Positions 1 through 63,580 of a stretch of 64,000 nucleotides of DNA are shown piece after piece. The notes below the pieces were generated by a model. The model was not told where the DNA came from. It made no database searches and saw only the letters and a program-made list of their open reading frames with translations. How positions within the stretch are numbered: the first letter of the stretch is position 1; each line of letters opens with the position of its first letter. Source of the DNA: a phage. A program made the position numbers and the translations under genes. The stretch lies in the sequence record OZ413489.1. One strand, given 5' to 3'.

Positions 1-258
1 CTCTGGGATGCCAACCCAGGTCTTAAGGGGCGCAAAGAGGATCTGGAGAAATTCTGGGAAGCAACAGGTAAGAAGTTTATCTACTCTTTTGATGGTCATG
101 CTATCTGGACCCGATCTAAACACTCTTTACTTAATGCATACCAACAAAATGGCGGTGCATCGTTGTGTGACTTAGTTGGAATACTCATGCACCACCAGAT
201 GGTGAAGCGTGGGTGGTACGATGAAGGTGTTCGTCGTATTATTTATTACCATAAATAA
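1..258 (+). CDS. hypothetical protein (5'-truncated at window edge)
   Basis: Open frame 1 from window start to TAA at 256-258; same strand as downstream array. Confidence 0.5.
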   Translation, partial: LWDANPGLKGRKEDLEKFWEATGKKFIYSFDGHAIWTRSKHSLLNAYQQNGGASLCDLVGILMHHQMVKRGWYDEGVRRIIYYHK

Positions 259-282
259 CATTGTGGCTTCATAGAGTAATCT

Positions 283-441
283 ATGTCGAATAACCTCTTT
301 AACTGCGGGAAGCCTAAACCTTATGGCAAGGTAATCCGCAACGAAGCGCTCAAAAGAGCGAACGCTCAGAGGCCATTCCGAAAGGAAGTAGACCAGCAAG
401 TGCGGTCGAAATGGGAGGATTCCTGTGGTTGCTTATCATAG
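283..441 (+). CDS. small Cys-containing hypothetical protein (52 aa)
   Basis: ATG 283, weak RBS; not in ORF track (<60 aa). Confidence 0.25.
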   Translation: MSNNLFNCGKPKPYGKVIRNEALKRANAQRPFRKEVDQQVRSKWEDSCGCLS

Positions 442-525
442 GAATATGAGATGGTCCGATCCTACGTGAAAACGTATGGCTATGCACGTAATGGTGCGGG
501 GTAGCTTAACGACCTACCTGAACTA

Positions 526-62680: not shown

Positions 62681-62709
62681 TTGACAAACTTTGCTTAACA
62701 GTGTAATAT
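62681..62709 (+). promoter_or_regulatory. sigma70-like promoter upstream of tRNA cluster (ttgaca-17-taatat)
   Basis: Hexamers at 62681-62686 and 62704-62709. Confidence 0.55.
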
Positions 62710-62767: not shown

Positions 62768-62842
62768 GCCCTGTTAGCTTAGTGGATAAAGCAGCGGCCT
62801 TCTAAGCCGTTGACACTGGTTCGAGTCCAGTACGGGGTGCCA
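62768..62842 (+). tRNA. tRNA-Arg (anticodon UCU)
   Basis: Cloverleaf folded by hand; loop cttctaa; TTCGAGT T-loop; encoded CCA. Confidence 0.75.
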
Positions 62843-62846
62843 AATT

Positions 62847-62933
62847 GGGGAGTTATCCCGTAGAGGTAGCGGTGTAGACTGTAAATCTATTGTCATTGCG
62901 ACTCGGGTGGTTCGACTCCACCACTCCCCACCA
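62847..62933 (+). tRNA. tRNA-Tyr (anticodon GUA), long variable arm
   Basis: Perfect acceptor ggggagt/actcccc; loop ctgtaaa; encoded CCA. Confidence 0.75.
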
Positions 62934-63047
62934 AATTTATATTTTTAGATGCATAAATAATACAGATAATGGCATTGATATTTATCGTCGTTTATACTAG
63001 TCACTAACTGCTCGAAAATCAGTGTCATTATCAGTATAATTTATAAA

Positions 63048-63138
63048 GGAGGGTAGGGAGCAATGGTGCTCAAGCGGTCTTGAAAACCGTCCCGTTGAGG
63101 ATGACTCGATGATGGTTCGATTCCATTACTCTCCGCCA
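63048..63138 (+). tRNA. tRNA-Ser (anticodon UGA), long variable arm
   Basis: Anticodon arm gcggt-cttgaaa-accgt close to E. coli tRNA-Ser(UGA); encoded CCA. Confidence 0.7.
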
Positions 63139-63236
63139 CATTGTTGACCTTGTAATTAAGCGAAAGCCGGAAGCAGAACCGGATTATCAAATGTTACAGT
63201 CGTCATCGCCGACTAGCAACATGGTCAACATGCTGA

Positions 63237-63335
63237 GCTAGGTAAGCCCTTTGGCAAGGGCGAGGATTTTTAATCCTGAAAATAGACGAGGTAGTCGTTG
63301 AATACATAGGTGGTTCGATTCCATCACCTAGCACC
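63237..63335 (+). tRNA. tRNA-like gene with aberrant anticodon arm
   Basis: Acceptor gctaggt/acctagc, D-arm and T-arm fold; anticodon region is either a 5-nt loop or a 4-bp stem with loop tttttaa; 3' end is CC then T. Confidence 0.35.
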
Positions 63336-63340
63336 TTTTT

Positions 63341-63416
63341 GCTGATGTAGCACAATCGGTAGTGCAATTGATTTGTAATCAATAGGTTGTAGGTTCAAAT
63401 CCTGCCATCAGCACCA
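63341..63416 (+). tRNA. tRNA-Thr (anticodon UGU)
   Basis: Perfect acceptor gctgatg/catcagc; loop tttgtaa; encoded CCA. Confidence 0.8.
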
Positions 63417-63417
63417 A

Positions 63418-63492
63418 GGCCCTGTAGCTGGAAGGTTCAAGCAAGCGACTCATAATCGCCAGACGGTGGTTCAATTCCACCCAGGGCCACCA
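63418..63492 (+). tRNA. tRNA-Met (anticodon CAU; could be Ile-lysidine type)
   Basis: Perfect acceptor ggccctg/cagggcc; loop ctcataa; encoded CCA. Confidence 0.75.
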
Positions 63493-63503
63493 AATAGTAA
63501 ATA

Positions 63504-63580
63504 CTCCGCGTAGCTCAGCTTGGTAGAGCGCCTGATTTGGGATCAGGAGGTCGAGTGTTCGAATCACTTCGTGGAGACCA
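63504..63580 (+). tRNA. tRNA-Pro (anticodon UGG)
   Basis: Anticodon arm cctga-tttggga-tcagg; canonical D-arm; encoded CCA. Confidence 0.75.

Follow-up and report, generated by a model that had tools for sequence, protein, structure and literature searches.

Phage tRNA clusters are anti-defence loci, and the tRNAs that they encode replace host tRNAs destroyed by PARIS, retron effectors, PrrC or comparable systems. In Escherichia coli, the tRNA most often attacked by such anti-phage nucleases (PrrC, PARIS AriB and Schlafen) is tRNA-Lys(UUU). Some tRNAs keep the L-shape and depart from the rules of decoding; examples are allo-tRNAs, the Bacillus cereus tRNA-Other and the staphylococcal non-proteinogenic tRNA-Gly. 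Previously, phage tRNAs were shown to neutralise the tRNA-cleaving defences PARIS AriB and retron Ec78 PtuAB (PMC11464382; PMC12409363; PMC11555353; PMC10264068). Furthermore, tRNA-Lys(UUU) is targeted by PrrC and preferred by a bacterial Schlafen nuclease (PMC10264068; PMC13056530). Here, we describe a tRNA-like RNA of 97 nucleotides (nt), encoded at positions 63237–63333 on the plus strand of a 64,000 nt stretch of phage DNA (record OZ413489.1; hereafter the window). The element, which extends from the first acceptor base through discriminator A73, very probably represents Vequintavirus in a conserved family of tRNA-shaped RNAs found in the tRNA clusters of large virulent enterobacterial phages. 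Our overall reading is that it may be a processed, non-decoding tRNA mimic acting as a decoy for anticodon nucleases. We assign this statement a probability of roughly 0.4.

The element has features in common with several described RNAs. With class II tRNAs (Leu, Ser and Tyr) and tRNA-Sec it shares a cloverleaf with an acceptor stem of 7 base pairs (bp), GG in the D arm, the G19:C56 elbow pair, a canonical T arm and, between this and the anticodon arm, one more hairpin. Conversely, and unlike class II tRNAs, the element and its relatives have an anticodon arm of 15–16 nt, rather than 17 nt, a loop that is not conserved between orthologues, and A8 with U14. Their variable region is 30–40 nt long and includes single-stranded linkers of 7 and 9 nt. 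In class II tRNAs the variable hairpin starts within 0–2 nt and the whole region spans ~21 nt or less. As in tRNA-Sec, the D arm can be drawn with 6 bp and a 4 nt loop, and some relatives have the loop CAUCAAA, which is similar to CUUCAAA of tRNA-Sec. However, U, A or C can serve as discriminator, the stems of the acceptor and T arms have 7 and 5 bp, not 8 and 5 bp, and scores against the tRNA-Sec model are below threshold.

The T5 tRNA-Lys(UUU), and other phage tRNAs that neutralise PARIS AriB or retron Ec78 PtuAB, are also phage cluster genes related to tRNA-Lys(UUU), and the idea of anti-immunity is shared. The T5-type tRNAs are canonical decoders made resistant by point changes. Conversely, the element keeps UAAUC, and UU before GG, in a non-canonical body. 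Its orthologues carry other loops, and any role in defence would be that of a decoy, not of a replacement. The stable RNAs C and D of phage T4 (species 1 and 2) are small, stable, non-tRNA products of a phage tRNA operon with a tRNA-like acceptor and T-arm 3′ domain. They are presumably matured by tRNA processing enzymes. However, the T4 RNAs are 119–139 nt long, do not form full cloverleaves and are not homologous to the element. Allo-tRNAs occur in other hosts and combine a long variable arm with anticodons that change between relatives. Their 8/4 or 9/3 bodies, with standard 7 nt loops, differ from the architecture seen here, and kinship in sequence is not expected.

Anatomy of the element

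The initial annotation recorded a tRNA-like gene at 63237–63335 with good acceptor, D and T arms and a long variable arm. This description is borne out by ARAGORN, by folding and by Rfam. The ARAGORN gene call has exactly these coordinates (plus strand), is labelled tRNA-??? and assigns a four-base anticodon, atcc, in an 8 nt loop. The Rfam tRNA model (RF00005) scores 35.5 bits against 63237–63333, which passes the gathering score of 29. Among the neighbouring genes, the same model gives 60–78 bits for the four class I tRNAs and 29.9 bits for tRNA-Tyr. The tRNA-Ser of the window is not listed at the RF00005 gathering threshold; its best match is the tRNA-Sec model, at 41.5 bits, which is under that model's gathering score of 47. 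In the Rfam alignment of the element, the anticodon stem has one position deleted and a non-standard first pair, the loop is the 7 nt UUUUUAA, and there is a long insertion in the variable region. Thus, neither tool returned a clean canonical call; ARAGORN gave only '???' and Rfam a marginal pass with a flawed anticodon stem. The fold proposed by ARAGORN (stem AUUUU/AAAAU, 8 nt loop, AUCC) was rejected, since that pairing is absent in relatives, which read GGUCCAUCCAGACCUGAAAAU.

The minimum free energy fold of the element contains the acceptor stem, the D arm, a short-looped anticodon hairpin, a variable-arm hairpin and the T arm. The folding energy is −34.2 kcal/mol (z = −3.66) and none of 200 shuffled sequences folded equally well. 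We consider the structure to be more than chance because of covariation in relatives, described below, and not because of the fold of a single sequence.

In this fold the 7 bp acceptor stem is GCUAGGU/ACCUAGC (63237–63243 with 63326–63332). A8, A9 and the D arm, GCCC-UUUGGCAA-GGGC, follow at 63244–63261, with GG at positions 18 and 19. Positions 8 and 14 are A and U; canonical tRNAs have U8:A14. A junction G at 63262 (position 26, or 27 in an alternative register) is the site of the Rfam deletion and is invariant in 15 of 15 sequences. Next is the 'anticodon' arm (63263–63277), the sequence of which is 15 nt long instead of the usual 17 nt. This arm can be read as AGGAU-UUUUA-AUCCU (5 bp and 5 nt) or as AGGA-UUUUUAA-UCCU (4 bp and 7 nt, anticodon UUU). 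Both readings had been pointed out before; both are present in the sequence and the ambiguity is a trait of the family. The variable region of 30 nt consists of a 5′ linker, GAAAAUA (63278–63284), that is unpaired in every fold, the predicted hairpin GACGA-GGUAG-UCGUU (63285–63299), found at the same offset in relatives, and a single-stranded 3′ linker, GAAUACAUA (63300–63308). The T arm GGUGG-UUCGAUU-CCAUC (63309–63325) is evident from the Rfam alignment and the fold, and has a canonical T loop. At the 3′ end (63333–63340), A73 is followed by CC and by five U residues that reach as far as tRNA-Thr, the first base of which is 63341. Hence, as first remarked, the element ends in CC then T and has no encoded CCA, unlike all six neighbouring tRNAs.

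A conserved body and a changeable anticodon arm

Searches using blastn, with the element and then with its diverged copies, identified homologues, one per genome, in Vequintavirus, Avunavirus, Seunavirus, Mydovirus and Henunavirus, and in phage PD06 and its relatives (Stephanstirmvirinae). A homologue is also present in the N4-like Salmonella phage UTK0002 (Schitoviridae, genus Ithacavirus). Further variants came from exact-pattern scans of IMG/VR and metagenomes. Looser DNA patterns, applied to IMG/VR, recovered the PD06-like group; the remaining matches were tmRNA 3′ ends and unrelated tRNAs. The range of the family is possibly wider than exact-pattern scans can reach. We collected 27 unique sequences in the first round and aligned 15 sequences with MAFFT (alignment A1) and 30 distinct sequences with a model-based approach (alignment A3). 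A covariance model built from the family (R1) gave 68–126 bits for members and no more than 28.5 bits for ordinary tRNAs, including the class II tRNA-Ser and tRNA-Tyr of the same clusters. In the window, the element (102.5 bits) is the only match in 64 kb. A conserved 22-mer had no exact match across 185,579 GTDB bacterial and archaeal species genomes, and a blastn search of 5,426 complete E. coli genomes with the element returned no match. A host origin and prophage copies were rejected on the basis of these empty searches.

We examined base pairing in both alignments, counting the four cloverleaf helices and the 19:56 pair. In A1, 99.7% of cells were paired and 10 of 22 pairs had changes on both sides; sliding the partners by 1–3 columns reduced pairing to 32–44%. 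For A3 the figures were 98.8% and 14 of 22 pairs, with slid controls at 30–44%. Alignment A3 was fitted to the model and so leans toward structure, but plain MAFFT alignment A1 gives the same picture. These figures count sequences and not independent events; for example, U19:A56 is probably a single event inherited by a clade. Every helix contributed. Thus, both sides had changed in five of the seven acceptor pairs (100% of cells paired), covariation was found in three of four D-stem pairs and two of five T-stem pairs (again 100% of cells paired for the latter), and pairs 30:39 and 31:38 of the anticodon-arm stem covary across the family. The elbow pair 19:56 is G:C in 21 sequences and U:A in nine, without exception. 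Covariation at this position indicates that the predicted fold is truly L-shaped. Hence, a 7 bp acceptor stem, G18G19 in the D arm, a 5 bp T stem and the 19:56 elbow are all shared with canonical elongator tRNAs. In the set of 15 sequences, A8, U14–U16 and G are invariant. The variable-arm hairpin occurs at a fixed offset in 20 of 20 folded variants and its stem sequences are unrelated (for example GACGG/CCGUU, UCCCCC/GGGGGA, GCUCUC/GAGAGU and UUAGAC/GUCUAA).

Between the window and the most divergent Vequintavirus variants, the element is 96–98% identical whereas the adjacent spacers are 79–86% identical. In the same comparison true tRNAs are 89–100% identical, and all but tRNA-Ser are at least 95% identical. 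The few substitutions in the element keep pairing (U-A to U-G and G-U to G-C). Judged by these identities, the element is under purifying selection within Vequintavirus and is conserved like true tRNAs. A pseudo-tRNA, one suggestion made initially, is therefore not supported if the term means a gene in decay; the element is conserved in three phage lineages, with 98.8% pairing and compensatory changes in every helix and at 19:56.

The most conserved segments of the RNA are the single-stranded linkers GAAAA(A)UA and AAUACAUA. In the 5′ linker, GAAAA is invariant in 15 of 15 Vequintavirinae sequences; among the 30 aligned members, UTK0002 carries an extra U after the G. The 3′ linker AAUACAUA is invariant in all 27 unique Vequintavirinae and metagenome sequences and reads AAUACGAAAUA in PD06-like phages. 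The least conserved part of the core is the 'anticodon' loop. This pattern of conservation is the reverse of that in a decoding tRNA.

Three types of anticodon arm were found. Type A, of Seunavirus and Mydovirus, has a 5 bp stem and a 6 nt loop (CAUCCA, CCUCCA, CUUCCA or CAGCCA). Type B, of Henunavirus, PD06-like phages, UTK0002 and metagenomes, has a 4 bp stem and a 7 nt loop, (C/U)AUCAAA, with A at position 33. Type C is a 15 nt arm with UUAUA (or U-UUAUA-A) in Avunavirus and UUUUA (or U-UUUUA-A) in rV5-like phages. The 30 sequences thus contain at least seven different loops of three lengths, and the anticodon is not conserved between orthologues. Across the family the arm is 15–16 nt long and does not conform to a canonical 17 nt arm, with its 5 bp stem and 7 nt loop carrying U33 and a purine at 37. 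Similarly, in place of U8:A14 and a variable region of 4–5 nt (or a hairpin of ~21 nt or less), A8 and U14 are invariant and the variable region is 30 nt here and 38–40 nt in relatives. Type B is probably ancestral because it is found in three separate lineages. Compared with type B, the rV5/Avunavirus branch has a 15 nt arm retained, the stem and loop replaced, and pairs 30:39 and 31:38 changed in a compensatory way. The rV5 element has additionally changed U73 to A73.

The 3′ end is also variable. Most members have U as the discriminator, but that of rV5 is A and a few have C. Most lineages encode CCA; it is absent from the element in rV5-like phages (A-CCU, A-CAU), Avunavirus (U/C-ACA) and PD06-like phages (U-UCA, U-CCC), although the neighbouring tRNAs keep CCA in all three. 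The rV5 version is alone in passing the Rfam tRNA threshold. At E < 0.01 there is no match for type A copies, and a type B copy (pEa56) matches Rfam tRNA-Sec at 37.6 bits, under the threshold of 47.

The initial annotation proposed a comparison with tRNA-Lys genes of relatives, and this proved informative. Relatives with large clusters have canonical tRNA-Lys(UUU), tRNA-Lys(CUU) and tRNA-Gly(UCC) genes besides the element, the anticodon of which differs between relatives. Therefore, the element is not an orthologue of any of these tRNAs. Taken together, we infer that the element is unlikely to be an ordinary decoding tRNA; the arm is too short and too changeable.

Likeness to host tRNA-Lys and possible functions

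The rV5 arm contains an 8-mer, UUUUAAUC, that is identical to positions 33–40 of E. coli tRNA-Lys. Positions 32–41 read C-UUUUAAUC-A in tRNA-Lys(UUU) and U-UUUUAAUC-C in the element. The E. coli sequence was confirmed in 5,426 of 5,426 genomes. Hence, at the level of sequence, the rV5 arm is a copy of the loop and 3′ stem of E. coli tRNA-Lys, including the published AriB motif UAAUC. The reported determinants of PARIS AriB cleavage are U36AAUC with A41 in the cut-type tRNA-Lys, U36AAUC with C41 in cleavable tRNA-Asn, and U16U17 in the D loop; the resistant tRNA-Lys of T5 carries U39A, A41C and U16C (PMC12409363). In the 7 nt register the element has UAAUC and then C, with UU right before GG in the D loop. 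It does not carry the T5-type resistant set, since it keeps U39, C40, C41 (as in cleavable tRNA-Asn) and UU before GG. Thus, the rV5 arm looks like a nuclease target rather than a resistant replacement.

Our proposal of a decoy for anticodon nucleases is based mainly on this likeness of the rV5 arm to the loop and 3′ stem of tRNA-Lys, with the AriB motif. The element would be transcribed together with the tRNA operon. By analogy with tRNA processing, RNase P would make two cuts, one at the 5′ end of the element and the other at that of tRNA-Thr, 8 nt past the acceptor stem. Exonucleases would then trim the U5 trailer to ACC and the host CCA-adding enzyme would supply the final A. The CCA-adding enzyme completes T4 tRNAs that lack encoded CCA. 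The conserved body could provide general tRNA-like recognition, and the fast-changing anticodon arm the specificity, as a lineage-specific bait. In the least certain step, the rV5 element would be a tRNA-Lys look-alike that serves as a decoy, competitive substrate or inhibitor of tRNA-Lys-directed nucleases. Taken on its own, the decoy part of this reading is tentative, and we would not bet on it at even odds. A broader version, which we regard as doubtful, is a mimic family with a fixed 'handle' (the acceptor, T and D arms and the linkers) and an exchangeable 'bait' arm, retuned in each lineage to the host tRNA under local nuclease attack. The bait would be Lys(UUU)-like in rV5-like coliphages and Gly(UCC)-like or Sec/UCA-like elsewhere.

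Several observations weigh against a decoy. The loops of other lineages merely resemble host loops (CAUCAAA compared with CUUCAAA of Sec, and CAUCCA compared with CUUCCAA of Gly(UCC)) and, because they have A33 or one base fewer, the mimicry is inexact across the family. Invariance of the linkers suggests a conserved partner or a tertiary fold, for which a decoy role offers no explanation. In one reading, the rV5 arm has 4 bp (or five 'pairs' with a G-G mismatch) and a canonical 7 nt loop, which with A73 makes up the LysRS identity set, and Lys codons are frequent in the open reading frames (ORFs) of the window. Finally, a deletion in phage V18, a viable isolate, has removed tRNA-Ser, part of tRNA-Tyr and the 5′ half of the element; in some conditions at least, the phage can thus do without the element. 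The deletion fits an accessory anti-defence role, but would fit a weak function too. In V18 the tRNA-Tyr 5′ part, through the anticodon arm, is fused to what remains of the element, starting with the variable hairpin's 3′ strand (L007, 960–1045); the acceptor strands of this chimera are unable to pair.

The best surviving alternative is a working, though structurally aberrant, elongator tRNA-Lys(UUU), which we consider unlikely. This tRNA would have a 4 bp (or G-G plus 4 bp) stem and the loop UUUUUAA, would be charged by LysRS through UUU and A73, and would have its CCA added. It would supplement or replace host tRNA-Lys in infection and might resist nucleases through its odd body. The identity elements for E. 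coli LysRS are the UUU anticodon and A73. In the 7 nt reading, which the Rfam tRNA model also aligns at its passing score, the element has a pyrimidine at position 32, U33, UUU, A37, A38 and A73, and both loop and discriminator have changed in the rV5 lineage compared with U73 relatives. However, this reading requires the U31-A37 pair to be open, and covariation of the innermost stem pair (C-G to U-A) favours the closed form with 5 bp and 5 nt. GenBank records of the BASEL phages name the gene tRNA-Lys, codon AAA. There is no other tRNA-Lys in rV5-like clusters, unlike those of relatives with large clusters, and the long ORFs of the window contain 74 Lys codons per 1000, of which 43% are AAG. 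The conservation of the element within the genus, which equals that of true tRNAs, is also as expected for a decoder. Conversely, orthologues elsewhere are not Lys tRNAs and most, with 6 nt loops or A33, are impossible as canonical decoders. The sister lineage Avunavirus has UAU, U or C at position 73 and no CCA. The body has A8 and U14 in place of U8:A14, and a 30 nt variable region that would probably clash with LysRS, a class II enzyme that approaches from the variable-loop side; by orthology, too, the element is distinct from tRNA-Lys, since relatives have separate Lys genes. CCA is not encoded, unlike in the six neighbours, and the retained U39, C40 and UU before GG do not make the RNA 'resistant' in the manner of the T5 tRNA-Lys.

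Alternatively, and with a rather small chance of being correct, the element could be a structured RNA unrelated to decoding or decoying. The linkers and variable hairpin would bind a phage or host protein and the tRNA body would serve processing or stability. Candidate roles include a scaffold or regulatory small RNA, a substrate or inhibitor of an enzyme for tRNA modification, CCA addition or processing, and a non-ribosomal aminoacyl carrier. This would account for the linkers, and not the anticodon loop, being most conserved, and for the retention of the RNA in three phage lineages where its neighbours differ. The T4 tRNA cluster sets a precedent with stable RNAs whose 3′ domain is tRNA-like, but these are not homologous; with filters off, R1 gave 7 bits (E = 0.69) on rnaC and nothing on rnaD. 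Only the tRNA and tRNA-Sec families of Rfam match the element, and copying of the tRNA-Lys loop by rV5 would be left unexplained. The initial suggestion of a processing element has gained no specific support; each neighbour is itself an RNase P substrate and, in relatives, the element directly adjoins a tRNA that already ends in CCA.

We consider it improbable that the rV5 element is a relic that lost an ancestral function, with a loop that drifted to U and A, and that persists inside a conserved operon. Loss of CCA and changes to the discriminator in rV5 and Avunavirus, the viability of V18 with a deletion through the element, and a variable arm shorter than in relatives are in line with this idea. 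However, every stem is intact, stem changes relative to other genera are compensatory, and the identity between divergent Vequintavirus variants, with substitutions that preserve pairing, exceeds that of the adjacent spacers.

A suppressor tRNA, reading UAA via UUA in rV5-like phages and UGA via UCA in Henunavirus-type phages, is very improbable; some GenBank rV5-type records and an Erwinia phage homologue are labelled tRNA-TERM, type B loops place UCA at 34–36 as in tRNA-Sec, and the pEa56 copy matches that model, but in the window UUA is out of register in both loop readings (the 7 nt loop gives UUU), type B has A33 and not U33, the tRNA-Sec score is below 47 and similar to those of the window's ordinary tRNA-Ser and tRNA-Tyr, and the stems are 7 + 5 bp, not 8 + 5 bp, with U or A, not G, as discriminator. 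Stop codons showed no sign of reassignment, although no search was aimed at this.

Other identities were tried and rejected. Assignment to tRNA-Sec itself (RF01852) failed on the 7 + 5 stems, A73, the lack of UCA in the window's copy, and a best relative (pEa56) at 37.6 bits. For tRNA-Sec, tmRNA, YrlA and other Rfam families, we found only sub-threshold matches of the tRNA-Sec type, which ordinary class II tRNAs also give. Protein coding was dismissed, as the only ORFs are short (no more than 59 amino acids), on the minus strand, and run through the tRNAs. The 'hypothetical protein' labels over homologues are spurious small ORFs.

Cluster context, neighbouring sequences and implications

The window is from an rV5-like Vequintavirus; Escherichia phage rV5 is 99.7% identical to it, as are numerous other genomes of the genus. 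The tRNA cluster around the element spans 62768–63580 (plus strand), according to ARAGORN, Rfam and the annotation of 99.7%-identical phages in GenBank. The order is Arg(UCU), Tyr(GUA), Ser(UGA), the element, Thr(UGU), Met/Ile(CAU) and Pro(UGG). A consensus scan located a σ70-like promoter, TTGACA-17-TAATAT, upstream of the cluster (62681–62709, plus strand), and this site is annotated P(tRNA) in rV5 (NC_011041). The cluster would be transcribed from here. A second promoter-like site, TCGAAA-17-TATAAT, precedes tRNA-Ser and the element (63012–63040, plus strand) and was identified by the consensus scan alone. The same approach flagged 63307–63340 (plus strand) as terminator-like; this comprises the T arm and acceptor 3′ strand, then GCACC and U5. 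If transcription ends or pauses here at all, this would modulate how strongly the tRNAs for Thr, Met and Pro, which lie downstream, are expressed.

Annotation of the element is inconsistent. It is unannotated in the rV5 reference (NC_011041), and the rV5 genome paper counts six tRNAs without mention of it (PMC3606486). In GenBank, the identical sequence is labelled tRNA-Lys (BASEL phages, codon AAA), tRNA-OTHER, tRNA-TERM, tRNA-???(atcc), 'hypothetical protein' or not at all. Similarly, the CAU tRNA at 63418–63492 (plus strand) is tRNA-Met in rV5 and Murica and tRNA-Ile (codon AUA, which implies lysidine) in BASEL phages. The same tRNA cluster, at 99–100% identity, is carried by 18 records (MG065644–MG065682) named 'Campylobacter phage' (host C. 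jejuni), which are probably mislabelled rV5-like coliphages or contaminants.

The 98 nt spacer between tRNA-Ser and the element (63139–63236, plus strand) can adopt a multibranch fold closed by GUUGACC/GGUCAAC (−25.8 kcal/mol, z = −2.15). Because it is only 79–81% conserved among Vequintavirus variants, the spacer is probably not a separate conserved RNA. Close to the start of the window there is a group I catalytic intron (243–478, plus strand; RF00028, 64.7 bits, gathering score 50). Introns of rV5 are known from its terminase gene, but this gene is located past the opposite end of the window.

Clusters of relatives contain further unusual sequences. In Mydovirus and Seunavirus, a second non-canonical tRNA-like gene is directly upstream of the element (L016, 511–585; L030, 5383–5457, minus strand; L004, 1419–1494). 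It has a good cloverleaf and a 6 nt loop, ACGAUA (ARAGORN '???(ga)', GenBank 'tRNA-Ser'); another form has the 7 nt loop ACGAUUC with C33 and U37 (called Ile-GAU). This looks like an Ile(GAU)-type loop with U33 replaced and parallels the Gly(UCC)-like CAUCCA of the element. A Seunavirus tRNA (L028, 5994–6079, minus strand) has a canonical Lys arm, UCCGA-CUUUUAA-UCGGA, and an enlarged D arm; it is 86 nt long and mis-called '???(ggca)' by ARAGORN. Downstream of the element in Seunavirus and Avunavirus is a conserved stretch of ~170–190 nt (L004, ~1620–1790; L005, ~1115–1285). Its ends pair like an acceptor stem and it includes a D-arm 3′ half and an anticodon-like arm with the loop YGYGGAR, the stem of which covaries (CCGUU/AACGG compared with CCAAC/GUUGG). 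This stretch may be a giant tRNA-like RNA with an insert of ~100 nt in the D loop.

In PD06 there are more tRNA-like sequences without an ARAGORN call (L095, ~1680–1775 and ~2590–2670), one of which combines an Arg(UCU) anticodon arm, CCUGA-CUUCUAA-UCAGG, with a long variable region and seems to lack a D arm. The PD06 tRNA-Lys(UUU) (2328–2403) has a mismatched anticodon stem, and its positions 36–41 are UAACUC, not the AriB-sensitive UAAUCA. In UTK0002, a class II tRNA-Ser(UGA) (L050, 2397–2482) is directly upstream of the element; both are unannotated in GenBank, and the region 2090–2390 contains more structured-looking sequence.

A description of this family was found neither in Rfam nor in the literature searched on Vequintavirinae tRNAs, tRNA-like decoys and Hena1, and rV5-like phages are not mentioned in the papers on PARIS and retron tRNAs. 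The element differs in one or more defining features from a canonical elongator tRNA, tRNA-Lys, tRNA-Sec, a suppressor, a T5-type resistant tRNA and T4 RNAs C and D. Within Rfam and the literature searched, the family is previously undescribed; in kind, it belongs with the tRNA-like RNAs of phage tRNA clusters. Phage tRNA clusters thus also hold conserved tRNA-shaped RNAs that annotation pipelines miss or name inconsistently. Caution is warranted with 'tRNA-Lys' counts for these phages and with the analyses of codon usage and tRNA content that depend on them. Should the element be a lysine decoder after all, a tRNA with a 30 nt variable region, A8:U14 and a 15 nt arm would interest those who study tRNA structure and function or engineer tRNAs. 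If the element proves to be a decoy or inhibitor of tRNA-targeting immunity, coliphages that are therapeutic candidates (rV5-like, phi92/PD06-like and BASEL Vequintavirinae) would possess a new type of RNA anti-defence factor. The arms race between phages and tRNases would then have an RNA-decoy arm, distinct from the supply of resistant replacement tRNAs.

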